Source: Gammaproteobacteria bacterium (GTDB taxonomy: Bacteria > Pseudomonadota > Gammaproteobacteria > Eutrophobiales > Eutrophobiaceae). From it: a stretch of DNA of 64,000 nucleotides. Under the pieces are notes generated by a model, which searched no databases, had not been told where the DNA came from, and was given only the letters and a program-made list of their open reading frames with translations. Numbering within the stretch: position 1 is the stretch's first letter; the number at the start of each line of letters is the position of its first letter. The position numbers and the translations under genes were made by a program. Below, in pieces: positions 2,107 to 48,100 of the stretch. The stretch spans positions 1,987,620 to 2,051,619 of the forward strand of contig OZ244846.1 of NCBI GenBank assembly GCA_965220815.1, in the 5' to 3' direction.

Positions 2107-3927
2107 TCATTCCAGGCTGAACGTCAGTATCTCGTCGCCGACCTCGTAGCCGAACAGGGAATTTCCCCCCGCGGCAACGGTAATATATTGTTTGCCCTTG
2201 TGCATGTAACTGACCGGTGGGGCGTTGACGCCGTATTCACTCATGTATTCCCACAGGGGTGTGCCGCTGTGGGCGTCATAGGCGACGAAGCGGCCGTTGC
2301 CTTCACCGGCAAATACCAGGTCGCCGGCAGTGGCCAGCGCGCCGCCGACCATGGGCCGCCCCACTTTCTGCTGCCAGCTTACCTTGCCGGACACGACGTC
2401 GATGGCGCTGAGCACGCCCCAATCGGGTTCATCGGCCTTTTTGAAAAACGACAGGCTCTGCCAGGGCGCACCCGGTTGCGGTTCCAGTTTCCTGGAAAAG
2501 AACAGTGAGGGCTGGTAAATGCCGGGAATGTACACCTGTTGCAGGCCGGGGTGGTACGCGACCGGAGACCAGGACACCGCGCCCAGGGTGCCGGGCACGA
2601 TGCGCACGCCGTCCTCTGTCGGCCGCGCGAACAGGTTTTCCGGCTTGATGAAAGGTTCGGTGCGCCGGATCAACCTACCGGTCTGCCGGTCATGGATAAA
2701 GAACCAGCCGAGCTTGCTCGCCTGTCCCACCGCCTTCACGGTCCTGCCGTTTTCAACCAGGTCGAACAGTACCGGCGGGCTGGCGACGTCATAGCCCCAG
2801 CGGTCATGGGGCACCTGCTGGTAATGCCAGCGCAGCCTGCCCGTCTCCGCTTCCAGGGCGACCAGACTGACGGTGTACAGGTTGTCGCCGGGACGGGTCG
2901 AGTCGTCCATCTGCGGCGACGGGTTGCCGGTGCCGATATACACCAGGCCCAGTTCAGGGTCGATGGCCGGTGTGGTGTAGATCGAACCACCACCGTAGCG
3001 CCAGGTATCGGCATAGGCCCTGTTGGCGTGTTTCTCTGCTTTCAGGTCCCGGTTCAACGGTACGCCATACCCGGTTTCCTCCCGCCACTCGCCCTGCCAG
3101 CCGGATTCCGGAGTGCTGTACCAGCGCCAGATTTCCTCGCCTGTCTCCGTATCGTAAGCAACGATGAAGCCGCGTAACCCATGGCCCCCGCCGGACAGCC
3201 CGCCGACCGACAATACATAGTCGCCGTCCTGATCAAGGTCCATGTGCAGGCCGTAACCCGCGCCGGAAATGCCCACCAGGACTTTACCGGCAAATACCTG
3301 CGGAGCCAGATTGGCGGTGTACCCGGTCTGCCCCGACTGTCTTGCGCCTTTCAGTTCATCCACGCCCAGCAACGGGTCGAGTTGTTCCGCCTTGCCCGCG
3401 TCGGTATCTGCGATTGCCGTGTCCCAGATTACTTTGCCCGTTTTCCGATCCAGGGCGATCAACCTGGCGTCGATGGTGACGCTGAACACCTTGTCCGCGC
3501 TCAGCGCCGGCCCGCGGTTGGCGGGGCCGCAGCAGAAACTCCTGTCTTCCGCCAGGTCATGGCGGTAACGCCACAACACTTTACCCGTGCCCGCGCGCAG
3601 GGCTATGACATCGTTGTAAGGGGTCGTTACGTACATGATTCCGTCCCGTATAATGGGCGAGGTCTGGAACGACCCGAACTTGCCGGTGTTGAAACGCCAG
3701 GCCAGCCGCAATCGCTCCACGTTGCCGGCATTGACCTGGGACAGGGGACTGAAACGCTGGTTGTCGAAGGTGCGCCCGTACAGGGGCCAGTCGCTGCTGT
3801 CGGTCAGAATGACGGCCGCGCCGGCGGGTTGCGCGACCAGGCAGAACAGCGCCGCCGCCAGTTGGTTGCGGCAACGGCGGATGAATGGGGTCAGGTCGCA
3901 CATTACGTACAGAATAACATTTTTCAA
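2107..3927 (-). CDS. PQQ-dependent dehydrogenase, methanol/ethanol quinoprotein family, periplasmic
   Basis: 606 aa with an N-terminal signal peptide. Vicinal Cys-Cys (SFCCGPANRG) as in MDH/ADH quinoproteins, repeated W-containing propeller motifs, and a PHDRWGYD segment aligned to XoxF PHDEWDYD. Confidence 0.8.
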   Translation of the reverse strand: MKNVILYVMCDLTPFIRRCRNQLAAALFCLVAQPAGAAVILTDSSDWPLYGRTFDNQRFSPLSQVNAGNVERLRLAWRFNTGKFGSFQTSPIIRDGIMYVTTPYNDVIALRAGTGKVLWRYRHDLAEDRSFCCGPANRGPALSADKVFSVTIDARLIALDRKTGKVIWDTAIADTDAGKAEQLDPLLGVDELKGARQSGQTGYTANLAPQVFAGKVLVGISGAGYGLHMDLDQDGDYVLSVGGLSGGGHGLRGFIVAYDTETGEEIWRWYSTPESGWQGEWREETGYGVPLNRDLKAEKHANRAYADTWRYGGGSIYTTPAIDPELGLVYIGTGNPSPQMDDSTRPGDNLYTVSLVALEAETGRLRWHYQQVPHDRWGYDVASPPVLFDLVENGRTVKAVGQASKLGWFFIHDRQTGRLIRRTEPFIKPENLFARPTEDGVRIVPGTLGAVSWSPVAYHPGLQQVYIPGIYQPSLFFSRKLEPQPGAPWQSLSFFKKADEPDWGVLSAIDVVSGKVSWQQKVGRPMVGGALATAGDLVFAGEGNGRFVAYDAHSGTPLWEYMSEYGVNAPPVSYMHKGKQYITVAAGGNSLFGYEVGDEILTFSLE

Positions 3928-3930
3928 GAT

Positions 3931-4845
3931 ATGCGAACGACAACACTGTTTCCGCTGGGGGCCGTCGCCATCAGCGTTTTTTCCTTCCTCTGTCCCGAAG
4001 CGCTGCTCCCTTTCAGGGGATACATCGTCCCGCTGCTCGGCCTGGTCATGCTGGGCATGGGTATGACCCTGCTCCCGGATGATTTCCGGAACGTGATCAG
4101 GAGTCCGAAACCGGTCACGATCGGCGTTGCCCTGCAGTTCATCCTGATGCCGTTTATCGCCTGGCTGCTGTCGGAGTCCATGGGCCTGCCGCCGGAACTG
4201 GCCCTGGGCATGGTGCTGGTGGGTTCATGCCCCGGCGGCACCGCATCCAATATCATCTGCTACCTGGCGAAAGGCGAGGTGGCCGTATCGATTACCCTGA
4301 CGGCCGTGTCCACGGTGCTGGCGGTACTGCTGACGCCGTTGCTGACCTGGGTATACATCGGGCAGAAAGTCCCCGTGCCGGTGTTGGCCATGATGTTTAA
4401 TATCTTTACCATCATCCTGGCGCCGGTCACCCTGGGCGTGTTAATCAATTACCGGTTCGGTGACAGGATACGGCCGGCCAAACGCGTCTTTCCGGGACTG
4501 TCCGCGGTTGCCGTCGTTTTGATCATCGGTATCATAATTGCCAATACCCGTGACCAGCTGGCGTTGCTTGCGGCGCCGGTTATCACCGCAGTATGCCTGC
4601 ACAATTTATCCGGCCTGGCCGGCGGCTATTGCCTGGCATGGCTGTTCGGGTGTGACAAACGCATCCGGCGCACCCTGGCCATTGAAGTGGGCATGCAGAA
4701 TTCCGGACTTGCAATCGCCCTGGTCGAACTGACGAAGTTTCCGCTGGCCGCCGCGTTGCCCGGCGCCCTGTTCAGCGTCTGGCATAATATCAGCGGTTCA
4801 CTGTTGGCAGCCTTGTGGGGACGGGAGTCAGGGGTTAGGGGCTAG
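3931..4845 (+). CDS. bile acid:sodium symporter (BASS) family transporter
   Basis: 304 aa polytopic membrane protein with BASS-family motifs (GMTL, LVGSCPGGTASN, EVGMQNSGLA). The track ORF 3181..4845 carries an artefactual N-extension overlapping the divergent PQQ gene. Confidence 0.8.
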   Translation: MRTTTLFPLGAVAISVFSFLCPEALLPFRGYIVPLLGLVMLGMGMTLLPDDFRNVIRSPKPVTIGVALQFILMPFIAWLLSESMGLPPELALGMVLVGSCPGGTASNIICYLAKGEVAVSITLTAVSTVLAVLLTPLLTWVYIGQKVPVPVLAMMFNIFTIILAPVTLGVLINYRFGDRIRPAKRVFPGLSAVAVVLIIGIIIANTRDQLALLAAPVITAVCLHNLSGLAGGYCLAWLFGCDKRIRRTLAIEVGMQNSGLAIALVELTKFPLAAALPGALFSVWHNISGSLLAALWGRESGVRG

Positions 4846-7504: not shown

Positions 7505-7507
7505 ATT

Positions 7508-7693
7508 TATCCACAGATTACGCAGATTAACACAGATGTTTCACTGTAAAGATGCGTATAAAACTCGTTATTCAAGGAACCATCTGATTAGGTCAGAGCT
7601 TCCTTAAATTATGTTGTGTAAATTTATGGGGACAGAATTAATTCTGTCCCCGGCCTGAAAATAATCTGTGTTAATCTGTGTAATCTGTGGATA
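7508..7693. mobile_element. MITE-like inverted-repeat element A (186 bp) filling the rplS-xerD intergenic region
   Basis: 31-bp terminal inverted repeats, TA|TCCACAGATTACGCAGATTAACACAGAT ... ATCTGTGTTAATCTGTGTAATCTGTGGA|TA, flanked by TA. Internal AGGAACC..TCTGATTA..GGTTCC-type hairpin at 7574-7607 and a GGGGACAGAATTAATTCTGTCCCC hairpin. Starts 3 nt after the rplS stop. Confidence 0.7.
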
Positions 7694-7710
7694 AAACATG
7701 GCGGTAGTTT

Positions 7711-13850: not shown

Positions 13851-13946
13851 TTTAACCAGTACCTTTTCCTGATATATAATTCTTGACTATTGTATTCGCA
13901 GAAACTAACCTGTACATGTTGGTTCGCTTTAAATGAAGGGGGCGTT

Positions 13947-16259
13947 ATGAAAACACAACATCACAAAACATACTACATAAGCCACATTCTGATTCCGGCC
14001 GTGGCCGGTTTGCTGTTATGTTCCGGTGCAGCCCGGGCCCAGGTGCTCGAGGAGATCGTGGTCACCGCGCAAAAGCGCGCGGAAGACCTGCAGGACACGC
14101 CGGTTGCCGTAACCGCGTTCACCGGGGAGCAACTGCAGCAGGCCGGTGTTTATGATGCCATCGGGCTCAGCAACGTCGTACCCAATGTGACCATAGGCAC
14201 CGAAGACGCCAGGGACGCAATTTTCATCAATATACGCGGCATTTCCCAGTCGGAACGCAGGAATACCTCGGACCCGACTACCGCGTTCTACATGGACGGC
14301 GCCCTGGTGCCGCGCATGTCCGGCGTCAACGCCTACTTTTACGATGTTGAGCGCATCGAAGTGCTGCGCGGCCCACAGGGCACGCTGTACGGTCGCAACA
14401 GCACGTCGGGAGTGGTCAATGTTATTACCAGGAAACCCGACCTGGAAGCGTTCGGGGGCGATATCCAGGTGGGTTACGGTAATTACGATGCGGTTGATGT
14501 AAGAGGCGCCCTGAATGTGCCTTTTTCAGACAGTTTCGGCGCGCGCGTCGCGTTCACCTATAACGAACGGGATGGTTACCGGGACAACAGTCCGGTTGCC
14601 GACGGCGACGACCTGGATGATGTCGGCGTGCGCGGCCACCTGCTCTGGGATATCACTGAAAATACCTCGCTGCTCCTCTCGGCGGACTACTATGAACACC
14701 AGGGTGTCGGACCGGTGCTGGCCCAGGTGGAATGCCCCGACCTCGGGTGCAACATCCCGATACCCCCGGACCCTGCCGACGCCAACCCGCTCAATACGGA
14801 AGGTTTTCGCGATAATACGGATACGAATTTCAAGGTCGAACTGAACCACTCGTTCCCGTTTGCCGACCTGACCTTCATCGGTTCCTACCGGGACCATGAA
14901 CGGGATTACCTGATGGATACCGACGGCACCGGCGCTTCCGTCTTCCTGCCGCCTGCCGGCAGGTTGGTTCCTATCGACACCATTGTCGTGGAACAGACGG
15001 AATCCGAGTCATTTTCGGGCGAACTCCGTTTGAATTCCAACACGGACGGCCGCTTCCAGTGGATCCTGGGGGGCTTTTACCTGGATGAGGATATCGCGGG
15101 CGATTTCCGTTACCAACCGGTGTTGCCGAACGGCGCGCACTTGAATGTGCAGTTTGTCGATAAAGGTTTCAACGTGGAGTCCTGGGCGGTGTTTGCCAAT
15201 GCTTCCGTGGATGTCACCGACCGGTTCACCCTGAACGGCGGCATTCGTTATACGGAAGATGAGAAAGACAAGGGCGGCGTCAACGACCCCGCCAATCCTA
15301 CGGCCGGCAGTTATATGACGGTCACCGTAAGAGAACTCGGCAGGCCCGTCGCGCCGGTATTTCCCCGCGCCCAGGTGTCGAATCCGTCCTGGAGTGAGGT
15401 TACTTATTCGTTCGGTCTTGACTGGCATATCAACGACGACACTCTTGTCTATATCAAGACCAGCAAGGGTTTCAAGTCGGGCGGTTTCAACCGCGGCAGC
15501 GTGGATCCCTTTCAACCGAGCGGCGCGCCCAATGTAGCAAACCTGATCGTCTATAACCCGGAGCAGGTGCTCGCCACGGAAGGCGGCATCAAATCCACTT
15601 TCATGGACGGCCGCGCCCGCGCTAACTTCAGTCTGTTCTGGTATGACTATTCCGACAAGGAGGAAGCCGTGGTGCGCGTCATTGGCGGGATCCCGACCAA
15701 TACGGCGATCAACGCGGGGCAGGCAACCATTTACGGGGCGGAACTGGAAACCTCGTTCCTGTACGGCGATCATGGCGGGCGCATCGATCTCAACATCGGC
15801 TGGCTGGATGCGGAATTCGATGAATTCGTCGGCCTGGACGATCCCCTGACGGCCGGCCAGGACAACCTGGACCTGGGCGGCGGTGAAATGGTCAATGCGC
15901 CGGACTGGAACATCAGCGCCACCTGGGTGCCCGTCGAGCTGGAAGTAATGAATGGAATATTACATCCCATGGTCCAGTTTTCGTTCAAGTCAGACTATAT
16001 AACACGGCCCCATAATCAATCGGTAGACCAGCAGGATTCCTACACCCGCACCAATGCAAGCCTGCACTGGGAATCCAGCAAAACCGGCCTGTTCCTGGAA
16101 GGTTTCGTGCATAACATAGAGAACGAGGACATCCAGACCGTATCGACGTGTCAACAGCAAGTCAATGGCGTGGCGGGAACACCCTTCCCCGGACTGGGCT
16201 GTACCCATATGTATCAACCGCCCCGCACCTACGGCGTGCGGCTGGGGTACAGGTTCTAG
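13947..16259 (+). CDS. TonB-dependent outer-membrane receptor
   Basis: Signal peptide, then a TonB-box/plug (EEIVVTAQKRAEDLQDTPVAVTAF), a 22-strand barrel body and a C-terminal aromatic residue (RLGYRF). RBS AAGGGGG precedes the ATG at 13947. Confidence 0.85.
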   Translation: MKTQHHKTYYISHILIPAVAGLLLCSGAARAQVLEEIVVTAQKRAEDLQDTPVAVTAFTGEQLQQAGVYDAIGLSNVVPNVTIGTEDARDAIFINIRGISQSERRNTSDPTTAFYMDGALVPRMSGVNAYFYDVERIEVLRGPQGTLYGRNSTSGVVNVITRKPDLEAFGGDIQVGYGNYDAVDVRGALNVPFSDSFGARVAFTYNERDGYRDNSPVADGDDLDDVGVRGHLLWDITENTSLLLSADYYEHQGVGPVLAQVECPDLGCNIPIPPDPADANPLNTEGFRDNTDTNFKVELNHSFPFADLTFIGSYRDHERDYLMDTDGTGASVFLPPAGRLVPIDTIVVEQTESESFSGELRLNSNTDGRFQWILGGFYLDEDIAGDFRYQPVLPNGAHLNVQFVDKGFNVESWAVFANASVDVTDRFTLNGGIRYTEDEKDKGGVNDPANPTAGSYMTVTVRELGRPVAPVFPRAQVSNPSWSEVTYSFGLDWHINDDTLVYIKTSKGFKSGGFNRGSVDPFQPSGAPNVANLIVYNPEQVLATEGGIKSTFMDGRARANFSLFWYDYSDKEEAVVRVIGGIPTNTAINAGQATIYGAELETSFLYGDHGGRIDLNIGWLDAEFDEFVGLDDPLTAGQDNLDLGGGEMVNAPDWNISATWVPVELEVMNGILHPMVQFSFKSDYITRPHNQSVDQQDSYTRTNASLHWESSKTGLFLEGFVHNIENEDIQTVSTCQQQVNGVAGTPFPGLGCTHMYQPPRTYGVRLGYRF

Positions 16260-16360
16260 AGATACGGGGTCAGGTCGCACAATGCACATTCTGAATGACC
16301 CCATGTTCTTTGCGCTTCAAAAAAGACAGAATGTGCATTGTGCGACCTGACCCCGTATCT
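16260..16360. repeat. 101-bp stem-loop with 34-bp perfect inverted arms downstream of the TonB receptor stop
   Basis: AGATACGGGGTCAGGTCGCACAATGCACATTCTG ... CAGAATGTGCATTGTGCGACCTGACCCCGTATCT, read directly from the sequence. Confidence 0.8.
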
Positions 16361-16408
16361 CCGGTTCATCCGGCCCCCATTGATTTTGAAGATACGTCCC
16401 TGTATCGT

Positions 16409-17797: not shown

Positions 17798-17874
17798 GGG
17801 GTCAGAGTAAAATCGCCGGGGGCGTCGGCAACAGCAGAGCCGCTGGTGATTTTACTCTGACCCCGGAATTTAGC
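17798..17874. repeat. stem-loop with 17-bp perfect arms between divergent genes
   Basis: GGGGTCAGAGTAAAATC ... GATTTTACTCTGACCCC. It shares a GGGGTCAG core with the 16260 palindrome. Confidence 0.7.
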
Positions 17875-21707: not shown

Positions 21708-21711
21708 GATT

Positions 21712-21880
21712 TATCCGCAGATGACGCAGATAAACGCAGATAATATTAATGTTGCAGTGCAAATTGTGTAGCACTTGTTTATACAACGAAGAATCTGAAA
21801 TGTTTGCAGACTTGAGAATACATCCTGAAGAAAAGGAAACACATAAAAACATCTGCGCTAATCTGCGTCATCTGCGGATA
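21712..21880. mobile_element. MITE-like inverted-repeat element B (169 bp)
   Basis: TA|TCCGCAGATGACGCAGATAAACGCAGAT ... ATCTGCGCTAATCTGCGTCATCTGCGGA|TA. Starts 4 nt after the xoxJ stop. Confidence 0.7.
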
Positions 21881-22618
21881 ATTTTATGCGTTCTATGGCT
21901 GTTTTCAGCGCCGCCGGCTTTCGCTGAGGAAGCGGATGAAGACGTAGAAGTAAAAGGGGCCACCATCGGCAGGATGGGCGACCCCGCAGTGGTTGACCCG
22001 AACACCTACGAGTTTGCCGACGCGGAGGTAAAACTCTGGATGGATAATCACCTCAGGAACATCGACAGCCCCGGGCGGCTCTATTATGATTTCGTCAAGC
22101 GCGGCAGTTACGAGGAAGGATTCAGTGACTCGGTATTCCTGGATATCCTCAAGGTTAATGAGGATGGCAGTAAGGACGCCGACCTGGAATTTTTCACCGC
22201 GGACAGGCAACAGGATGCCCGGCGTGATAACCTGGTCGGCATAACGGGTAACCCGGTGCTGGTTGTATACATGCAGGGTGATGTCTACGAGATGAACCGC
22301 CTTACCAACGGTAGCTGGCGTTATTTCCAGAGGCGTATCAAGTCGGCATTTGCCGAGAACGCGAAAATAGAGCCGGTTACATTCGAGTATGACGGCGCTG
22401 AGATGACAGGGGAAAAGATTTCCATCACCCCGTATGTCAACGATCCCAGGCGCAGACAGTTCGCCGCGTTCGCTCCAAAGCTTTACGAGTTTATATTATC
22501 CGACCAGGTGCCGGGGAAACTGTACCAGATCAAGACAGTCATACCGGCCGGTTCACCGGACGGTGAACCGTTGATGGAAGAGATCCTGACCCTGCAAAAC
22601 GCAGAATTCGCGAACTGA
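21797..22618 (+). CDS. hypothetical periplasmic protein whose 5' end is encoded inside MITE B
   Basis: Downstream of the MITE, ILCVLWLFSAPPAFA|EE reads as the signal h-region and cleavage site. The only in-frame start codons (21749, 21797) lie inside the MITE. The body is D/E-rich with no recognised domain. Confidence 0.4.
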   Translation, partial: EMFADLRIHPEEKETHKNICANLRHLRIILCVLWLFSAPPAFAEEADEDVEVKGATIGRMGDPAVVDPNTYEFADAEVKLWMDNHLRNIDSPGRLYYDFVKRGSYEEGFSDSVFLDILKVNEDGSKDADLEFFTADRQQDARRDNLVGITGNPVLVVYMQGDVYEMNRLTNGSWRYFQRRIKSAFAENAKIEPVTFEYDGAEMTGEKISITPYVNDPRRRQFAAFAPKLYEFILSDQVPGKLYQIKTVIPAGSPDGEPLMEEILTLQNAEFAN

Positions 22619-23447: not shown

Positions 23448-24340
23448 TGTAATATGTCCCTGAGGTGGAAGTGATACTGCCCCAGTTTCCCGCCATAGTT
23501 TCCCGCACTGATTCGGTAGATGCCCTTGTCGGGCCCGTTTTTGCAGACAGCCTCGACCCCGGCGCGCATGGCTTCGCTTATCGCAGTTTCATTTAAACCA
23601 TCGATGACAATTTCCAGGACGGAACCGACCTCTTCGGTAAGCGTGCTGTTTACCCGGCCTTTCAGGGTGGGGCAGAATACTTCGTTGGTGGAGGCCGGTA
23701 AAAATGAATATTTGGACCCTACCTTGGAGCCGGACCCGACAATGCCGCCCGGGAACGTAGTGACCGCGCCTTCTACCGCCCTGATTGCTTTTACCGCTTT
23801 TTCACAGGCGTTCAGGCCGTGGCGGGATGTCTTTGCCATTACCAGGAAGTTGCCGCCGCCGATGGCGGGGACCACGCCGGTAGTCTCCTCGCACAGGAAT
23901 TCGCCGTGCATGACCGGGATGCGCCAGTAGCGGATTCCGTCCAGTATCTTTGATATCTGGTAACCGTCGCCGAAATACCTCAGGCTTTTTCCCAGGGGCA
24001 GCATGGTATCGCTGTGGGTCCCGGCAAAACAGGCGCTGGTTGCGGTGGTCATCACGGATTGGCCGACGCGCCGGGTGAGCTGGTCCGCGAGTTGGGATTT
24101 GGACATGGCGAACATGATGATCGCCACACCGGGCCTGCCGTCCGGGGTTTCATCGGGTCCCAGTTCCCGTTCTATGTCGGCCTCACAACCGCAGGCTATC
24201 ACGGAAGAGGCGAACCCGGTCAGTGAGTTGGCCGCGATGTATGCGTACTTCATGGTCATCGCGGTGATGATCAACCGGGTCGCCTTCATGGGGAAGGCCT
24301 CGGCAAAGGTATCGTCGATGGTTACGCCGTTGATATTCAT
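23444..24340 (-). CDS. fhcD: formylmethanofuran:tetrahydromethanopterin N-formyltransferase (Ftr/FhcD), set 1
   Basis: 298 aa. Ftr family similarity, and paralogous to 30169..31056 (about 50% identity by eye). Confidence 0.85.
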   Translation of the reverse strand: MNINGVTIDDTFAEAFPMKATRLIITAMTMKYAYIAANSLTGFASSVIACGCEADIERELGPDETPDGRPGVAIIMFAMSKSQLADQLTRRVGQSVMTTATSACFAGTHSDTMLPLGKSLRYFGDGYQISKILDGIRYWRIPVMHGEFLCEETTGVVPAIGGGNFLVMAKTSRHGLNACEKAVKAIRAVEGAVTTFPGGIVGSGSKVGSKYSFLPASTNEVFCPTLKGRVNSTLTEEVGSVLEIVIDGLNETAISEAMRAGVEAVCKNGPDKGIYRISAGNYGGKLGQYHFHLRDILQ

Positions 24341-24350
24341 GTTTATTCTA

Positions 24351-24606
24351 TATCCACAGATGACACAGATGAACGCAGATGATTTATTGTTTATTTATCC
24401 ACAGATTACACAGATTACACAGATATTTTCAGGTGTTATTTGTGTGCGTCTCCGGTTATCATTCCCGCGCAAGCAGGGACTCAACAGATAAATTCTTCCG
24501 TTTCAAAAAAAGTTTTTTACCTGCCATGTGTTTACATTCGTGATGTTAAGCAGAAGGATATGAAATCATTTCAATCATCTGTGTTAATCTGTGTAATCTG
24601 TGGATA
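24351..24606. mobile_element. MITE-like element inside the fhc operon (256 bp, two left ends and one right end)
   Basis: TA|TCCACAGATGACACAGATGAACGCAGAT, then a second TTATCCACAGATTACACAGATTACACAGAT at 24394, then the right end CATCTGTGTTAATCTGTGTAATCTGTGGA|TA at 24577-24606. The fhcA stop codon (24584-24586) lies inside the right end. Confidence 0.7.
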
Positions 24607-26260
24607 AGTCCCGTTTGCAGTCATGCACCAGCAGAGAATGCTGGTTGTAGCCTTCAAGTTCGTCCCGGCTGATTTTGAAATTCTCAAGGCTCATGGTCAT
24701 GTACCTGTCGAAGTAGCGTTTAAGGGGTTTCTCTATTCCCGGGTCGTATTCCGGTTCGACCACGTGGGTGGAGGTAGCCGGGATGGCGCAGACCTTGCCG
24801 TTCCTGACGCAGGGTTCGCCGCGCTTGAATACGTATTCCGGTTTGCCGAACATGGTCTCGAGGTTGTCGTCGGGCGTGTACACGGTGATATCCGCTATTG
24901 CCCCGATGCCGAGGTGGCCCAGGTCCCGGAGGCCCAGGCTCCGTGCCGGCGCGGCGCGGGTGATGATCGCTATCTCGTATAACGAGTATTCCCGGTCGAG
25001 TGAGGACAGGACGCTGGCGCCTGCTGCGTCCCTGTTTATCGCGCCCAGCATGTCGTTGCGGAAACTCCTGTCCATGAGCAGCCTGATCAGGTGCGGGTAA
25101 AAGGTAAACGGCGCGCCGTTGGGATGGTCGGTGGTCATGAACACGCGCCAGGGATCATTCACGAGCAGGAATATTTCCAGGCCGATGCACCACTGCAAGG
25201 CGTTGACAAAATTTTTGTCCCGGTAACGGAACGGCACCACGCCGCAGCCTGCATCGCATTCGATATCCATGCATACCCATTTTTTCGGGTTGGCATGAAC
25301 ATGTCCCCTGTGTTGCATCATGGTATCGGCGGAGGCGGTGACCGTCTGGCCGAACATGACCTGGCCTACGTCAATGGACAGGTTCGGGTTCAGGTTTACC
25401 GCCTCTGCCAACTGTGCCGCCGCGGATGAGAATTTCCTGTCCCCTTCCTGCCCGTAACTGTGGAACTGTACGTGGGTCAGGTGCATGGGTCTCCCCTCGG
25501 CCGAAGCTATGGTGTCGAGGGTCGTCCGGTAATTGCCCGGCACCCCCAGGTTGCAGGCATGGACGTGCAGCGGGTGGGGAACGCCGATGGCCTCCAGCGC
25601 ATCGAGCAGGGCGGACAGGATGGCGCGCGGCGTTAATCCGTAATATTTGTTGGATTCATCCAGGTCCAGCTTTCTCTGGTTGAACTTGAACGCGTTGATG
25701 CCTCCGGGGTTGACTACCTTGACGCCCATGGCCCGTGTTGCCTGTATGGTCCACGCCACGTAATCGTTGACAAGTTGCGAGTCCCTGTTGCGTTGTAGCA
25801 GGCGTAACAGGAAATCATCATTTCCGAGCAGGACATAAGCGCCGGTATCCAGCATGGGAGTATCGGCCATCTCCAGGTGCGACTGGCGTGCATTCACCGG
25901 CATCATGGCCGGTTCGAAACAGGAGGTATAACCCATTTCGGCATAGCGGTATCCGGTAACGAAACTGCTTGGCGCGATGCTGCCTGAACCGGAGCGCATC
26001 AGCATGTCGGGAGCAACGGGGTTGCCGGCGTGGTCCTCAGCCAGCAACATCCTGGCGATACTGACCTTGCCTCCGCCGATATGGGTGTGGATATCGATAC
26101 CGCCCGGCATGACGACGCGCCCGGCCAGGTCCAGTACCCGGTCAATCCTGCCTGCAGTCGCCGGATCGGCCAGCCTGCCGTCCTCGATATACAGGTCCAT
26201 AACCTTGCCGTCTATCCCGTTCGCCGGGTCGTAAACCTTTCCGCCTTCGAGCTTGATCAT
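24584..26260 (-). CDS. fhcA: formylmethanofuran dehydrogenase subunit A homolog (amidohydrolase), set 1
   Basis: 558 aa. Metal-dependent amidohydrolase motifs (PGGIDIHTHIGGGK ...HVHAC...). Paralogous to 31053..32690. The last 7 codons are encoded by the MITE terminal repeat. Confidence 0.85.
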   Translation of the reverse strand: MIKLEGGKVYDPANGIDGKVMDLYIEDGRLADPATAGRIDRVLDLAGRVVMPGGIDIHTHIGGGKVSIARMLLAEDHAGNPVAPDMLMRSGSGSIAPSSFVTGYRYAEMGYTSCFEPAMMPVNARQSHLEMADTPMLDTGAYVLLGNDDFLLRLLQRNRDSQLVNDYVAWTIQATRAMGVKVVNPGGINAFKFNQRKLDLDESNKYYGLTPRAILSALLDALEAIGVPHPLHVHACNLGVPGNYRTTLDTIASAEGRPMHLTHVQFHSYGQEGDRKFSSAAAQLAEAVNLNPNLSIDVGQVMFGQTVTASADTMMQHRGHVHANPKKWVCMDIECDAGCGVVPFRYRDKNFVNALQWCIGLEIFLLVNDPWRVFMTTDHPNGAPFTFYPHLIRLLMDRSFRNDMLGAINRDAAGASVLSSLDREYSLYEIAIITRAAPARSLGLRDLGHLGIGAIADITVYTPDDNLETMFGKPEYVFKRGEPCVRNGKVCAIPATSTHVVEPEYDPGIEKPLKRYFDRYMTMSLENFKISRDELEGYNQHSLLVHDCKRDLSTDYTD

Positions 26261-27492
26261 GCCGCGCTGCCGGTTATATGTGACAGGACCTGGCCGATGA
26301 CGGTAGCGGCACTGGGGGCGCCCGATTCCCTCAGCTTTTTCAAAGGCAGGCTTATGACGCCGTCCGTCCTGAACAGGGTGCCGGCATGGTCTATGCCGGG
26401 AACGCCCGTGGGAATGTAAACGTCTGCATCACTCGTCCCGGCACTGTACGGAGACAGGATGATCACAGGTACGTCCAGGTCCGGGGGCATTTCTTCGGCA
26501 AACCCCGATATCCACAACAGGCTGTCCACGTCCGCCGGGTGTACGCCGGCGCCGGAAGGACGCCCGCCGTTGAAATCGACTGCAGCCGGGAAGCCGGTCT
26601 GCCAGGTGGCTACGCTCTGCCAGGATGCGCCGCCGTTGCTGCCGCCCAGGGATAAACCGGCAAAACGCTGCCTCGCGTTAAGGTCGCGCAACAGGTCCTG
26701 CGCCGAACTGATGACGAAGTCGGCCTGATCCTGGGGCAGGGCTGCGGGGCTCCATACCAGTACGCCGTATTGCGCGTCCCTGATCATGCCGGCAACCTGT
26801 TTCAGTTTACGGGTTTTTGACGCCGGTATTTTTCTGAAATCCGGCAGTTGCCGGTCGGCCAGCAGGGCGCGCAGCAGCGCGAAGTTGTCGGCGATTTCAT
26901 CACCCTGGCCGGAAAGGACCGCAGGCTCATGGTGGTCGCAGCCGGCCAATTCGGTCCTGCCCGGCCTGCCCAGGTAAGCCAGCTTCTTGTGTTGCCCCGC
27001 GAACAATGAATGGGGCGTGTTGATGAATCGCTCGATAAACCGGGGATAATTGCCGCAGACATTATTGCCGATAAAGATGACGACGTCCGCACGGTTCTTT
27101 ACCTCCGCCAGGGTGGCCGTGATCCCGCCGCGTGCCTGCAACGCTTTCAGGTTATGCAGGGACTGGTTTTCCTGCGAATGCAACAGCGCCGCATCCGTCT
27201 TTTCGGCCAGTTGCAGGGCTGCGCGCAGGCCGTTAACGTCTGTGCCGAGGCCGGCGATCAATGGTTTGCGGGACTTGCGCAGGAGTTTTGCCGCAGCGCT
27301 TAAGGCTTGTCCCACAGTTGCAGGAGCGCCCCTGACAGAGGCTTCCGATGCCGGGGGCGGGGCGGAAAAGCCCTGCCTGGCAAGCCGGCAGGCATTGGCG
27401 GAGACGCTGAGTTGATTCTTCTGTGCGCGAAGCGTCAGGTCATCGCATAACAGGCTGCAGAACGGACAGGTGACGTTATCAATCGACGCCAT
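26257..27492 (-). CDS. fhcB: formylmethanofuran dehydrogenase subunit B homolog lacking the metal-ligand Cys (Fhc type), set 1
   Basis: Start at MASIDNVTCPFCSLLCDD, an N-terminal Cys cluster. At the position aligned to CHGPS of the paralog it reads SLHNL. The track ORF extends 96 codons further upstream as R/G/Q-rich junk overlapping fprA. Confidence 0.8.
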   Translation of the reverse strand: MASIDNVTCPFCSLLCDDLTLRAQKNQLSVSANACRLARQGFSAPPPASEASVRGAPATVGQALSAAAKLLRKSRKPLIAGLGTDVNGLRAALQLAEKTDAALLHSQENQSLHNLKALQARGGITATLAEVKNRADVVIFIGNNVCGNYPRFIERFINTPHSLFAGQHKKLAYLGRPGRTELAGCDHHEPAVLSGQGDEIADNFALLRALLADRQLPDFRKIPASKTRKLKQVAGMIRDAQYGVLVWSPAALPQDQADFVISSAQDLLRDLNARQRFAGLSLGGSNGGASWQSVATWQTGFPAAVDFNGGRPSGAGVHPADVDSLLWISGFAEEMPPDLDVPVIILSPYSAGTSDADVYIPTGVPGIDHAGTLFRTDGVISLPLKKLRESGAPSAATVIGQVLSHITGSAA

Positions 27493-32725: not shown

Positions 32726-34090
32726 TTACTGCAGGGGCGCGGCTGCTCGGCTTACGCCGGTCGCTCCTCGGGCCTGGCCTCTGGCCAGGACCAGTTCGCG
32801 CACGCGTTTTCTGATCGCAGTCAGTATTTCCTCGTCGTTGGGGAAGGGTGAATCGAAGGCCTTGCGCAAGGTGATCGGCACGTCGTCCATCCGGTATACG
32901 GTGCCTGCGGTGTTGATGCCGTAGGTGGAAGTCCGGAATGCCACGTGCGCCAGCTTGCTGGTGAGGGTTGCCTTGGTGTCCAGGCAGACGACCGGGATGT
33001 TTGCCAGGTGGTCGATAGCCGCCTGGGGGAAATTGGATGCGGGGTCGGTGGCGACGATCAGGGCGGCATCGACGTCCCGCTTCGCCAGCAGGTCCACGGT
33101 TGTGAACTCGCCCGGGTTGAAACGGGGGAAGCCGCGGCTGAAATTGACGCCGAAAGGATAGCCGGTCTGCCAGGACATGACATTGTCGGCGCCCGTGACG
33201 TTACCGTGGCCCCGTACCGGTTTGGCGACGAAATGGGTGTATTCATTCAGGTCCGTGGCCAGGGCGAGCAGGGCGCCCGAATTGAAATGCCGGCCGCGGG
33301 TCATGGTCAGGCCCATGCCGAAAAACAACACGCCGTAGCGGCAGTTTTTCATCCGCTCCACCAGTTCCTCCATGGTTTCCAGGCTGACCCCGGTCTCTTC
33401 TTCGATATCCGGGTCAATCCTGCGGTTTTTGACCAGCGCCCGCAGGGCCCATAACACTTCAAAGTCCTTGCCCGGTTTTACCTGGATAAACTGGCTGGCT
33501 GCCGGCGCGCTGGGGGTTCTGCGCACGTCCACCAGGACCACGTGCCGATCTTTTTTGCCCCTGGGGGTAAACATCCCCTTGGCGGTGACCGCATAGCGGC
33601 CGAAGTGGCGCGGGTGGGACTCGGCAGGATTACCGCCCCAGTAGATGACCAGGTCGGCGCGGTTTTTGACTTCACCCAGGGTCATGGTGCTTTCCCCGAC
33701 TCCCTGGAGAGCTATGCCGGACGGGCCGTGACAGACCGACGTGGTGGTGTCGATATTGCCCCTGATGGTGTCGGTAATGGCGACGGCCTGGCGCTGCGCC
33801 TCACAGGTCGTGTCGCTGAGGCCGTAAGTTATCGGGAACCTGGCATTTACCAGTGTTCTCGCGGCTTCCTCCACCGCTTCCTCCATGGAGACAGGCCGGT
33901 TATCTATCATGGCCACCGGCGCGTCCTCTTCGATATAGTGTTCCGCAAACCAGGCTTTGCCGAGTATACAGGCATTCTTCGATTTGGTGATCCGCTTTTC
34001 ATCCATGTCCACGGTCAGGATCATGTCGTCACAGACACAGCCGCAGAATGTGCAGGTGGCATTCTCTACAACTTTTACGTTTTCACTCAT
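32726..34090 (-). CDS. fwdB: formylmethanofuran dehydrogenase subunit B with the metal-ligand Cys retained (molybdo/tungstopterin type), set 2
   Basis: N-terminal CTFCGCVCDD Fe-S motif. Cys120 sits in SVCHGPSG, the Cys/Sec-His position of the formate-dehydrogenase superfamily active site. 454 aa. Confidence 0.8.
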   Translation of the reverse strand: MSENVKVVENATCTFCGCVCDDMILTVDMDEKRITKSKNACILGKAWFAEHYIEEDAPVAMIDNRPVSMEEAVEEAARTLVNARFPITYGLSDTTCEAQRQAVAITDTIRGNIDTTTSVCHGPSGIALQGVGESTMTLGEVKNRADLVIYWGGNPAESHPRHFGRYAVTAKGMFTPRGKKDRHVVLVDVRRTPSAPAASQFIQVKPGKDFEVLWALRALVKNRRIDPDIEEETGVSLETMEELVERMKNCRYGVLFFGMGLTMTRGRHFNSGALLALATDLNEYTHFVAKPVRGHGNVTGADNVMSWQTGYPFGVNFSRGFPRFNPGEFTTVDLLAKRDVDAALIVATDPASNFPQAAIDHLANIPVVCLDTKATLTSKLAHVAFRTSTYGINTAGTVYRMDDVPITLRKAFDSPFPNDEEILTAIRKRVRELVLARGQARGATGVSRAAAPLQ

Positions 34091-34502: not shown

Positions 34503-34679
34503 ATTTCAGTTCCGCAAATGCGCTGTAAGAATCAGTGAAGAATCCTCCGGCCAGGCCAGAGGAAGTAGGAACAGACAGGGATATATGCCGGCGCCATAAT
34601 CCACATCGGTTCCTGTTTATATCATTTTCCCGCGAAATCGTCAAATCCGCCTCTCCGGCCAAAATAAGCTCAGGAGTTT

Positions 34680-34779
34680 TTACAGGACACCCACGTAAAT
34701 TACAGGACACCCATGTAAATTACAGGACACCCATGCAAATTTTATGGGTGTCCTGTAATTTACATGGGTGTCCTGTAAT
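34680..34779. promoter_or_regulatory. array of five 20-bp repeats (3 direct plus 2 inverted) in the divergent fwdD/mptG promoter region
   Basis: TTACAGGACACCCA[C/T]G[T/C]AAA three times (34680-34739), then TTTTATGGGTGTCCTGTAA and TTTACATGGGTGTCCTGTAA, giving a palindromic overall arrangement. Confidence 0.7.
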
Positions 34780-34790
34780 TTCTCCCTCCC

Positions 34791-34875
34791 CGCAGATAAC
34801 ATCCGCAGATGACGCAGGTTAACGCAGATGTTTTCGGGTAAAATAATCTGCGTTAACCTGCGTCATCTGCGGATA
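34791..34875. mobile_element. minimal MITE-like element C (two terminal repeats with a 14-bp spacer)
   Basis: CGCAGATAACATCCGCAGATGACGCAGGTTAACGCAGATG ttttcgggtaaaat AATCTGCGTTAACCTGCGTCATCTGCGGA|TA. It ends 11 nt before the mptG start. Confidence 0.6.
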
Positions 34876-34885
34876 AAAAATATCT

Positions 34886-45100: not shown

Positions 45101-48100
45101 CACCAGCCGACTACGCGGCGGTGTCCAATTTTAACATTGTCATCCCCGCGGGCGCGGCCAGCCACACCAACACGTTTACCCTCACGCCCGTGAACGACAA
45201 CCTGGACGAGGAGAATGAAACGATAGACGTGACAGGCACGGTTCCCGGTTCCATCACTGTTACGCCTGCCACGGTAAGCCTCACCGACAATGACGACCCG
45301 CCCATTTTTTCCATTGCCGGTGACGCCGCGTCCGAGGGCGATGCGATTGACTTTGTTGTGACCCGCGGCGGGGCCACGGCGAACGTGGCGACGGTCAAGA
45401 TTGCCACCGCCGCCCATTCAGGTGACGATGTGAATCCTGCCGGCGCCGACGATTACACCGCGATTACAACAGCACAGACACTCAGTTTCGCCAGTGGGGA
45501 TACCAGCCAGACCGTCTCGGTACAGACGACCGAGGACGATTTATATGAGGAAGACGAGACCTTCCTGGCAGTACTGAGCGAGCCGGCGCTGGCGGAGGGA
45601 GACCCGGGCACGGGGGTGAGCATTGCGCCCAACGCCGGCAGCGCCACGGGCACGATACGGAACGATGATACCGAGCCGTCGTTTTCCATTACCGATGCCA
45701 GCGCCTCGGAAGGCGATGCCATCACCTTCACGGTGACCCGTTCCGGGGCCATGGACAATGCCGTGTCGGTATCCTGGAACACCAAGCCGGCGACCGGCGC
45801 CAATGCGGCTGCGACCTCAGATTACACGCCGGTAACAACGCCGACTCAACTGGACTTTGGCGCCGGTGTGGGCAGGGTGACGTTCACGGTCAGCACCACG
45901 GAGGACGTACTGGACGAGGGCAATGAGACCTTCCTGGTGGAGTTGACGAGTCCGGTAGGCGGCGCCATCACCACCGACGAGGCGACCGGTACTATCAACG
46001 ATGATGACGATGCACCGACTGGCATAACCTTGACAGTGGACGAGAACTCGTTCGCGGAGAATGCGGACACCGCAACGGTGACCGTCACTGCCACGGTCAC
46101 GGGCGGCACCACCTTTGCCGATACGAAGACAGTGGTGGTGAGCGTGGACGATGGCACGGCGATTTCTGGCACCGACTATGCAGCGGTGCCCGGCTTCAAC
46201 ATCGCCCTCGCTGTCGGCGCCGAGAGTGCCACCGGAACATTCAGCTTCAAACCGACGGACGACGAACTGGACGAGCCGAATGAGACACTGGACGTGACTG
46301 GGACCCTGACGGATGTGACGATCACGAAGGCCACGATCACGATCAACGACAATGATACGACGCCGAGTTTCAAGGTAGGGGATGCAAGTGCCGCGGAAGG
46401 GGAGGCATTGAGTTTCGTGGTGACGCGGGACGGTGCGACGGCAAACGTGGTGACGGTGGATTGGGCGACGGCGTTGGTGGACGGCGAGGCGTCAGCGATG
46501 GACTTCACAGCGGTGCCGGCAACGACGTTGACCTTTGCGGCGGGGGACACGACGAAGATGGTGACGGTGATGTCGACGGAGGACGTGCTGGACGAGGAGG
46601 ACGAGACGTTCGAGGTCAAGCTGACCAACCCGGCCAAGGGTGCGAGTGACCCGGGCAGCGTCCCGACGATCAGCGATGACACGGGTGAGGGGACCATCAC
46701 CGACGATGACGCGGCGCCGATGACGATGACCCTGACGGTGGATGCGGACACGGCCACGAACAACGTGCAGGGCAGCCTGGCCGAGGACGGCGGGGCGAAG
46801 ACGGTGCGGGTCACGGCCGCGATTACCGGCGCCACCCGCTTTGCCGCCGCGCAGACGGTGAGCGTGGCGGTGGGCAAGGCGATGGACAGCGCCCGGGAGG
46901 GGACGGACTACGCCACGGTGGCCGACCAGACCATCACGATTGCGGCGGGGGCGGCCAGCGGGCAGGTGGACTTCACGCTGACGCCCACGGACGATGACAT
47001 CGACGAGCCGAACGAGACGATAAGCATCGCGGGCACGCTGGCCGGTGTGACGTTCACCGACACCGTCATCACCATTACGGACGATGAGGCCCTGCCGACG
47101 CTGAGCCTGGCGCTCGGCGCAGCGTCGATTAACGAGAGCGGCAACGGCAACAGCACCGCGGTGACGGCGCGCTTGTCGGGCAAGTCCAGCGTGGACGTGA
47201 CGGTGGCGGTGGGCACGGCGCCGGGGGCGGACACGACCACCGGCGATTACACGGTGAGCGCCAACACGACGCTGACGATTGCCGCGGGGTCGACGGCGAG
47301 CACGGGGGAGGTGACCATCACCGCAGTCGATAACAAGGTGGACGCCCCGAACAAGAGCGTGACGGTCTCGGGCACGGCCAGTGGCGGCGGGGTGGCGAAC
47401 CCGGGCAACCAGACGTTGACCATCACGGACGATGACACCCGCGGCATCACCGTGACGCCGCTCACGCGCACCCTGGACGAGGTCGATGACGCGGACACCG
47501 ACGACGCTACGGAAAACCGGGCCACCTACACGGTGGTGCTCGACAGCGAGCCCACCGGCACCGTGACCGTCAACCTGGCCAGCAAGGACGGGACGGTGGC
47601 CACGGTCGGCACGGCCAGCCTGGTCTTCACCACCGCCGACTGGAACACGGTGCGCACGGTGACCGTCACCGCGGTGCCGGACATCATCGACAACACCGGC
47701 AATGCGCGCACGGTGGACATCGAGCACACGGTGGTGGCGGCGGGCACGGACTACGAGGACGAGAGTGCGGCCAGCGTGACCGTCACGGTCACCGACGATG
47801 ACGCGGCGCCGATGACGATGACCCTGACGGTGGATGCGGACACGGCCACGAACAACGTGCAGGGCAGCCTGGCCGAGGACGGCGGGGCGAAGACGGTGCG
47901 GGTCACGGCCGCGATTACCGGCGCCACCCGCTTTGCCGCCGCGCAGACGGTGAGCGTGGCGGTGGGCAAGGCGATGGACAGCGCCCGGGAGGGGACGGAC
48001 TACGCCACGGTGGCCGACCAGACCATCACGATTGCGGCGGGGGCGGCCAGCGGGCAGGTGGACTTCACGCTGACGCCCACGGACGATGACATCGACGAGC

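Follow-up and report, generated by a model that had tools for sequence, protein, structure and literature searches.

The 243-nt spacer between fhcA and fhcD in a Gammaproteobacteria bacterium (Eutrophobiaceae) is probably a REPIN-like hairpin element without a gene but with an additional left arm, belonging to a nuclease-linked repeat family and near-neutral in its effect. The spacer lies within a formylmethanofuran dehydrogenase (Fhc/Fwd) operon on the minus strand of the window, a term used here for the whole 64,000-nt stretch of contig OZ244846.1 that was analysed. An original prediction made on this DNA had treated the spacer as a one-off insertion of a miniature inverted-repeat transposable element (MITE) that replaced the native C-terminus of FhcA. 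A wider claim is put forward tentatively, at less than even chances: hairpins built from RCAGAT units and from sister units could represent the non-autonomous part of a so far undescribed class of elements that move or maintain themselves, whose dedicated enzyme would be a GxxExxY nuclease of ~120 aa. The class would be a REPIN/RAYT-like partnership built on another catalytic fold, PD-(D/E)XK, and would reach more than ten bacterial phyla and phage-like contigs; its palindromes may fit very tight operon junctions because the stem would draw the upstream stop and the downstream start together and keep their translation coupled.

The spacer is occupied by three arms of one repeat, one right and two left, and their complementarity confirms the predicted inverted-repeat element with two nested left ends. 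The fhcA-proximal right arm (24573-24607, minus strand) reads TTATCC-ACAGAT-TAC-ACAGAT-TAAC-ACAGAT-GATT and encodes the residues LSTDYTD and the TAA stop of fhcA. On the fhcD side, the outer left arm (24350-24384, plus strand) reads ATATCC-ACAGAT-GAC-ACAGAT-GAAC-GCAGAT-GATT and the inner left arm (24395-24431, plus strand) reads TTATCC-ACAGAT-TAC-ACAGAT-TAC-ACAGAT; between the arms lies an AT-rich interior (24432-24572, G+C about 37-40%) that holds no GxxExxY remnant. The outer arm at 24351-24384 is 91% complementary to 24573-24606 over 34 nt, and the inner arm at 24395-24417 is 100% complementary to 24585-24607 over 23 nt; terminal inverted repeats, one of the features that define a MITE, are therefore present. 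All three arms at 24350-24607 have at least two RCAGAT units with 9-10-nt spacing, an ATCC end that reads GGAT on the opposite strand, and inverted pairing. With up to three mismatches allowed, the window contains six occurrences of the 23-mer TTATCCACAGATTACACAGATTA, where 100 shuffles give an expectation of 0.00.

The two genes bordering the spacer run directly into these arms. The fhcA stop codon TAA is at 24586-24584 and is preceded by the last seven codons TTA TCC ACA GAT TAC ACA GAT (LSTDYTD, 24607-24587), all within the right arm as had been predicted, whereas the D that opens the predicted tail DLSTDYTD (GAC, 24610-24608) falls just beyond the core arm. The six nucleotides 24608-24613 (minus strand, CGGGAC, codons R550-D551) are probably a degenerate outermost arm unit, on a weaker basis than the core arm itself; the relative L003 carries CAGGAT where the window has CGGGAC, and the local arm consensus extends as AGATTTATCC. 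At the other end, the coordinates bear out that the fhcD ATG (24340) begins 10 nt past the outer left arm. The GGATAT that had been named as the Shine-Dalgarno-like sequence of fhcD is indeed the element terminus, but its likeness to a Shine-Dalgarno sequence is weak, with the GGA lying 12 nt from the ATG. No RNA family of Rfam 15 reached the gathering threshold anywhere in the window, and the matches at E<=10 were limited to miRNA and snoRNA families at chance level. The interior also includes a small hairpin, ATTCCCGCGCAAGCAGGGA, at 24461-24479, and an RCAGAT element in a Prevotellaceae metagenome-assembled genome (L022, about 4425-4447) contains TCATTCCCGCGCAGGCGGG; both resemble the ATTCCC-N8-GGGAAT repeats of Neisseria and other bacteria, and a smaller repeat may be nested within the hairpin loops.

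At least four further copies of the repeat are found within the window. The second full copy (7506-7695, 190 bp, with 32-nt arms that are 97% complementary) starts 2 nt after a TGA and ends 4 nt before an ATG, and the third (21711-21881, 171 bp, with G-variant arms) begins 3 nt past the upstream stop and ends 4 nt before the following ATG, such that both exactly fill junctions of co-directional genes; among the four copies, three in total occupy a tight junction of this kind without remainder. A short hairpin form at 34790-34876 consists of two arms (34801-34834 and 34841-34874) around a 6-nt loop, and a solo arm, GCATCTGCGCTAATCTGCGCCATCTGCGGAT, at 2066-2096 on the minus strand adjoins the 3' end of the minus-strand open reading frame (ORF) 2107-3927. 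When the three full copies were aligned in both orientations, only the arms were conserved and the interiors were unrelated; because of these unrelated interiors the element does not qualify as a classic MITE. Within a pair, the arms resemble each other: the variant at the first R position agrees in 0.88 of comparisons within pairs versus 0.52 between elements, the 34801/34874 pair has a common rare CAGGTT variant, and A- and G-variant arms are both present in this genome. The notion of a one-off MITE insertion is not supported, given these four additional copies with unrelated interiors, the tail QDLSADDAD shared by at least 14 relatives (81-85% identity), and the presence of the motif in many phyla together with its tie to GxxExxY nuclease genes.

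In its general form an arm strings together two to five units of 9-10 nt, (T)TATCC-RCAGAT-NNN-RCAGAT-NNNN-RCAGAT, and the repeat occurs both as solo arms, which are common, and as hairpins of 47-502 bp. Scanning one genome per species for the exact 20-mer TATCCRCAGATKACRCAGAT located it in at least 119 genome stretches from more than ten phyla by record label. Among the matches listed, these include Acidobacteriota (many of them Pyrinomonadaceae), Verrucomicrobiota, Planctomycetota, Chloroflexota, Nitrospirota, Latescibacterota, Lentisphaerota, Bacteroidota, Spirochaetota, Armatimonadota, Desulfobacterota, WOR-3, and Beta- and Gammaproteobacteria. The motif is also in 50 IMG/VR stretches, in which no GxxExxY gene was found, and on plasmids from cultured organisms (Bacteroides, Persicobacter, and Thiodictyon) whose records leave the matching segment unannotated: it lies between carA and carB in the Bacteroides finegoldii plasmid record, between bioC and a bioG-family gene in the Persicobacter plasmid record, and between formylmethanofuran dehydrogenase subunits B and A on a plasmid of Candidatus Thiodictyon syntrophicum. 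In this last case (plasmid pTs485, L256, 1484-1889), the spacer between subunits B and A contains an RCAGAT hairpin at 1501-1642 followed by a second hairpin with GCAAAT-unit arms (GTCCGCAAATTAGAGCAAATGA ... TTTGCGTTCATTTGCGGAC), so that, in a distant lineage, a single operon junction of this very pathway carries two sister repeat types one after the other. No published description of the repeat or of GxxExxY mobility was found in the searchable literature, which does not prove that none exists.

The link to a nuclease comes from larger versions of the hairpin, of ~480-500 bp, that carry an ORF of ~120 aa encoding a GxxExxY protein of the PD-(D/E)XK type. The gene is intact in the L068 hairpin at 3276-3754 (TIGR04256 'GxxExxY protein', E 2e-41; PF13366 PDDEXK_3, E 3e-38), frameshifted in the L053 hairpin, and reduced to the last 32 GxxExxY residues in a 202-bp hairpin of L063; an alignment of three sequences shows no variation at the catalytic D...E-x-K or at the GxxExxY residues. 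The association was also approached from the protein side, using 80 metagenome GxxExxY loci ranked by similarity to one RCAGAT-type protein (that of L068). The 70 loci with 100 nt or more of sequence to either side of the gene were scored for RCAGAT doublets that face inward from both flanks. Such doublets flanked 17 of the 30 genes at least 55% identical to the L068 protein and 2 of the 40 more distant genes, while a doublet in either orientation was present in 1 of 414 control windows located more than 400 nt from the gene. For many of the distant genes, the inverted arms follow the same design but use other units, such as CACGAATTA, CACGAAAGA, CACGAAGGA, CGCAAAGG, and CACGGATTA. These patterns suggest a superfamily in which arm unit and GxxExxY protein co-diversify; the arm type goes with the protein subfamily, and gene and arms act as one cassette in many contexts. 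Arms of other units in L123-L202, L063 (1656-2000), and L022 (389-706) are 9-nt-periodic and also include CGCAAAGAC and CACTAATT.

Most hairpins lack the gene. Among the 83 paired hairpins recovered by the DNA search, 3 hold any GxxExxY sequence and 80 are gene-less, and a profile hidden Markov model found no GxxExxY gene or remnant in the window or its elements (positive control L063, E 1.8e-15). A search by sequence found no solved structure of a GxxExxY relative. One locus, L125 (1236-1936), comprises three tandem 113-bp copies, each opening with an identical flank plus left arm, gcgggcaaaaacaaatCCGCAGATTGCG; copies one and two are 78-bp hairpins, and the third arm opens a GxxExxY cassette, an arrangement that points to local tandem amplification of the hairpin beside a gene-bearing copy.

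Comparison with homologous proteins shows what the right arm has done to FhcA. The closest homologues (88-95% identity, mostly 549-551 aa) end in HDC followed by K, R, RL, or LQI and the stop, and further arm-less relatives (80-85%, 549-554 aa) end in HDC followed by KQ, TNT, INTGHQ, and similar residues. The conserved FhcA domain model stops near residue 536. Since arm-less relatives end HDC[K/R] at 549 aa without a tail, the proposal that the FhcA tail and its stop are encoded by the repeat is upheld. The accompanying proposal that the insertion replaced the native C-terminus is not supported: the residues up to K549 are all kept and about nine are appended, in a stretch that was already variable. 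The native FhcA end was thus likely at about K549, and the 9-aa tail RD-LSTDYTD is probably repeat-derived as a whole. At least 14 FhcA clusters with 81-85% identity (13 of 558 aa and one truncated at 508 aa) end in HDCKQ-DLSADDAD, and the tail DLSADDAD is the translated G-variant arm TTA TCC GCA GAT GAC GCA GAT TAA, as seen in the DNA of L003, which has just a solo arm at its fhcA end. The codons preceding TTATCC, CGG GAC in the window and CAG GAT in L003, resemble the outer AGAT-TT extension in the consensus of the local arms. In other phyla, long ORFs of unrelated genes likewise run into arms and end, for example, in LSADYAD, LSTDFAD, or LSADDADERR; capturing a tail is a general by-product of the repeat, since one frame of the arm stays open until the TAA in GATTAAC.

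The relatives of this genome reveal the recent history of the junction. L003 and L203 are 95-97% identical in DNA and differ in their arms at three sites. At the fhcA end, L003 has its solo arm while L203 reads tgtaaacaaTAAccATG. Between fhcD and fhcC, L003 reads arm-interior-arm-arm; in L203 there is one arm of two units, with flanks that correspond to the first and third arms of L003, a pattern that would be expected from recombination between direct arms. At the site corresponding to 21711-21881, an orthologous element whose interior is conserved in part is found in L003, L203 retains a right-arm remnant only, and L204 has the footprint TTCAcCTGCGcATAA; L001 was unusable as an empty site for this copy because its sequence there is an assembly gap of Ns. 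An arm also lies between the fhcD and fhcC genes of L204. The fhcA end of L002 reads CCACAGAGGTCACAGAGAA, which could be either a decayed arm or an arm of sister-unit type. Overall, the fhcA-fhcD junction measures 2 nt in L203, 33 nt in L002, and 26 nt, with the solo arm, in L003. The closest relatives, L001 (about 93% DNA identity) and L204 (about 88% across fhcA), have FhcA proteins that are 92-95% identical to that of the window and yet carry a different inverted-repeat element, CCAACAGGTTGGGATAG / CTATCCCAACCTG, in this spacer. This element spans 3818-3927 in L001 and 4651-4846 in L204 (CCAACAGGTTGGGATAG ... CACTATCCCAACCTGT, with an extra CTATCCCAACCTG copy in L204), and FhcA ends in CLQI in L001 and in K in L204. 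Because the relatives differ in the arms and elements present there, the fhcA-fhcD junction is a hotspot for small hairpin elements, in which arms are old, turnover is fast, and no arrangement is conserved. The comparisons of L003 with L203, L204, and L002 yielded no clean target-site duplication, the sites being too diverged or resembling deletions or footprints.

At the level of the operon mRNA, the element lengthens the distance between stop and start from 2-33 nt in some relatives, arm-less ones among them, to 243 nt. The spacer RNA folds with -80.2 kcal/mol (z = -5.55), and in this fold the 5' arm, which includes the fhcA stop, pairs with the outer 3' arm, which includes the GGAUA 9-13 nt upstream of the fhcD AUG; the resulting stem of 23-34 bp contains both the stop and GGAUAU. 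A scan for consensus sequences on the coding (minus) strand at 24000-25000 detected no sigma-70 promoter and no intrinsic terminator. The stems of Correia elements and of further rRNA intervening sequences (IVS) are cut by RNase III. The IVS stem of Coxiella serves as an example of such an RNase III substrate (PMC4990558). An RNA duplex of 23-34 bp would be long enough for this enzyme, and cutting could split the fates of the fhcBA and fhcDC transcripts. A ribosome finishing fhcA would be expected to melt the base of the stem and free the fhcD start; coupling may therefore survive the insertion because the stem brings stop and start together, and its survival would explain why copies are tolerated in very tight junctions. 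The element is most likely selfish and near-neutral for Fhc function, a rating based on the lack of conservation among relatives, and the gain and loss of arms between near relatives argues against a conserved regulatory role.

The identity of the operon itself is supported by Pfam and NCBIfam matches and by the adjacency of the B, A, D (Ftr), and C genes. The minus-strand order is fhcB-A-D-C, in disagreement with the C-D-A-B order given in the original prediction. The genes are fhcB (27492-26257, a divergent B recognised by NCBIfam), fhcA (26260-24584, 558 aa, formylmethanofuran dehydrogenase subunit A family), fhcD/ftr (24340-23444, 298 aa, formylmethanofuran-tetrahydromethanopterin N-formyltransferase), and fhcC (23447-22629, recognised by Pfam and NCBIfam), the last two of which overlap. 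The models for subunits A (TIGR03121, 739.6 bits), D (TIGR03119 and NF002554), and C (TIGR03122) exceed their cut-offs, while subunit B of this first set (26257-27492) scores 231.6 bits against TIGR03129, under the cut-off of 327.8, and gave no molybdopterin-oxidoreductase matches. A second, paralogous B-A-D-C set lies at 34090-29347; its subunit B (32726-34090) scores 511.5 bits against TIGR03129 and is hit by formate dehydrogenase alpha models as well. The two sets thus differ in subunit B, and set 1 has the look of an Fhc-type complex, set 2 that of an Fwd-type complex.

Combined, these results would fit a mechanism in which two inverted arms flank variable DNA and a GxxExxY nuclease recognises the array of units and presumably propagates or maintains gene-less hairpins. 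The gene-less hairpins would be the non-autonomous majority of a REPIN/RAYT-like system, a reading adopted because the same arms flank GxxExxY genes in the ~480-500-bp versions. The 3' end of fhcA probably bore an arm already before the relatives split, and arms would later have been lost, decayed, or been duplicated through recombination and slippage between units; the fhcA frame enters the arm and gains about nine residues before the in-frame TAA. Several observations weigh against this reading. The 64-kb window is without a GxxExxY gene, leaving a resident master copy unproven. L001 and L204 differ at the junction, so an ancestral arm needs replacement there or else the arm in the window is a parallel gain. 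No fresh insertion or target-site duplication was caught, the empty/filled pairs look like deletions, and the mobility of the hairpins is thus something we infer. The co-variation of arm and gene may partly reflect shared descent of whole cassettes, as the loci were ranked from one RCAGAT-type protein, and the nuclease gene could be homing into pre-existing hairpins instead of mobilising them.

The element shares features with several known systems. Like REPIN/RAYT systems, it forms hairpin doublets that are dense in intergenic and operon-internal sites (at least five copies in 64 kb here), its gene-less copies far outnumber those flanking a small nuclease-type gene, and it exists in solo as well as in clustered form. 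A REP sequence is typically specific to one species, whereas the same 20-mer is present here across more than ten phyla. Two further differences concern the partner, which is a ~120-aa PD-(D/E)XK GxxExxY protein here and an HUH Y1 protein in the case of RAYT, and the arms, which are arrays of 9-10-nt direct repeats here as opposed to the one imperfect palindrome with a GTAG head of REP. The comparison is with REP/REPIN elements and their RAYT (TnpA-REP, HUH Y1) genes as previously described (PMC8266576, PMC8049555). Among the features of that system, numerous inverted doublets, some of them flanking a gene, were found here, and a RAYT gene was not. Among bacterial MITEs, the comparators are the Correia elements of Neisseria, ERIC/IRU, and RUP; with these the element shares terminal inverted repeats, a size of 50-250 bp, locations in operons and at gene ends, extension of ORFs, and a transcribed stem (cut by RNase III in Correia), but it has no common core, no detectable target duplication, variable arms and units, and no parent with a DDE transposase. 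The IVS of 23S rRNA, among which that of Leptospira is a further comparator, are likewise small selfish cassettes bounded by inverted repeats with an RNA stem and an ORF of ~120 aa, and RNase III removes the IVS stem-loop. These IVS, exemplified by the Coxiella IVS with S23p (PMC4990558), sit in rRNA helices and encode a four-helix-bundle protein, whereas the present repeat sits in mRNA junctions and has PD-(D/E)XK relatives.

Among the other explanations, it is rather unlikely, in our assessment, that the RCAGAT hairpins are an independent repeat into whose loops GxxExxY genes insert as homing-like parasites, with the fhc element never having been linked to the nuclease. PD-(D/E)XK homing endonucleases are an established class, the small share of paired hairpins that hold GxxExxY sequence (3 of 83) agrees with this explanation, and the gene-less interiors are unrelated to one another and to the gene. 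In opposition to it, each GxxExxY subfamily has its own arm unit type, implying specific recognition whichever partner came first; a decay series runs from intact through frameshifted genes to the 32-aa remnant within RCAGAT hairpins; and homing alone leaves the arrival of hairpins at new sites unexplained. We hold it to be distinctly improbable that, along the lines of the original prediction, the element is a selected regulatory device of the fhc operon, in which processing, attenuation, or an internal promoter would adjust the output of FhcD/C relative to FhcB/A. The very stable stem sequesters the fhcA stop and the only Shine-Dalgarno-like sequence of fhcD, the window has two paralogous fhc/fwd sets, and transcribed repeat hairpins such as Correia and REP do alter mRNA fate. 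Yet the consensus scan of the coding strand gave no promoter- or terminator-like site, the junction varies in length and content among L203, L002, L003, L001, and L204, and the same repeat lies in carA-carB, in bioC-bioG, and in two other junctions of the window; therefore, passive tolerance fits these unrelated junctions and variable relatives better than selection does.

A conventional MITE derived from an insertion sequence with a DDE transposase, for example an IS630/mariner-like one with TA duplication (TA-TCC...GGA-TA), is given a very low probability. Terminal inverted repeats, small size, an AT-rich core, multiple copies, and a TA beside TCC/GGA at most ends in the window are what such an origin would leave, but the copies are without common internal sequence, arm and unit number varies, solo arms are common, the gene-bearing forms encode a 120-aa PD-(D/E)XK protein and no recognised transposase, and the filled/empty pair of L003 and L203 has no duplication. 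The IS630-type TA duplication was rejected as a candidate on the bases outside TCC, which vary in the protein-first set (AATCC, GTCC, CGTCC, AACC). Lowest of all do we rate the possibility that the arms are binding arrays for a host protein, with the A-variant terminus TTATCCACA, a perfect DnaA box, serving DnaA titration or chromosome organisation. All four perfect TTATCCACA 9-mers in the window (7507, 7694, 24395, and 24607) are termini of A-variant arms, against 0.31 expected, and the 9-10-nt spacing would set the motifs on roughly one helix face; on the other hand, the conserved core is RCAGAT and not the box, and the GxxExxY link gives a more specific partner. A DnaA-box cluster was rejected as the main explanation given that ~60% of arms have the G variant TTATCCGCA, which breaks the box. 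If the repeat has hundreds of copies per genome, its A-variant termini would dominate any census of consensus DnaA boxes.

The window contains other repeats and one very long gene. A hairpin array at 34673-34785, unrelated to the RCAGAT hairpin at 34790-34876 that it adjoins, is built of the 20-nt unit TTACAGGACACCCATGTAAA in three direct and two to three inverted copies, with arms of up to 38 nt that are 100% complementary. A perfect 35-nt inverted repeat, GAGATACGGGGTCAGGTCGCACAATGCACATTCTG, with a 33-nt loop (16259-16361) starts from the last stop-codon base of ORF 13890-16259, and 1.5 kb beyond it lies a 26-nt inverted repeat starting GGGGTCAG (17798-17864); the two may represent another repeat family. 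On the minus strand, a giant ORF of at least 5830 aa occupies 46492-63984 and starts near the window end.

For the fhc operon, the gene-less, nuclease-linked hairpin that we favour calls for caution, in that the FhcA tail and the 243-nt spacer would be by-products of a repeat and not tailored regulation. Similar repeat-made tails occur on unrelated proteins and should be recognised by annotators. The 20-mer is nearly unchanged across more than ten phyla and unannotated in curated records. The repeat additionally offers a natural system in which to study the tolerance of long transcribed stems within operons. GxxExxY proteins form a large paralogous family without an assigned function, and the link described here suggests a testable role for them in recognising and propagating hairpin-forming arrays of 9-nt units. 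If true, this would extend the REPIN/RAYT concept to a second enzyme fold.

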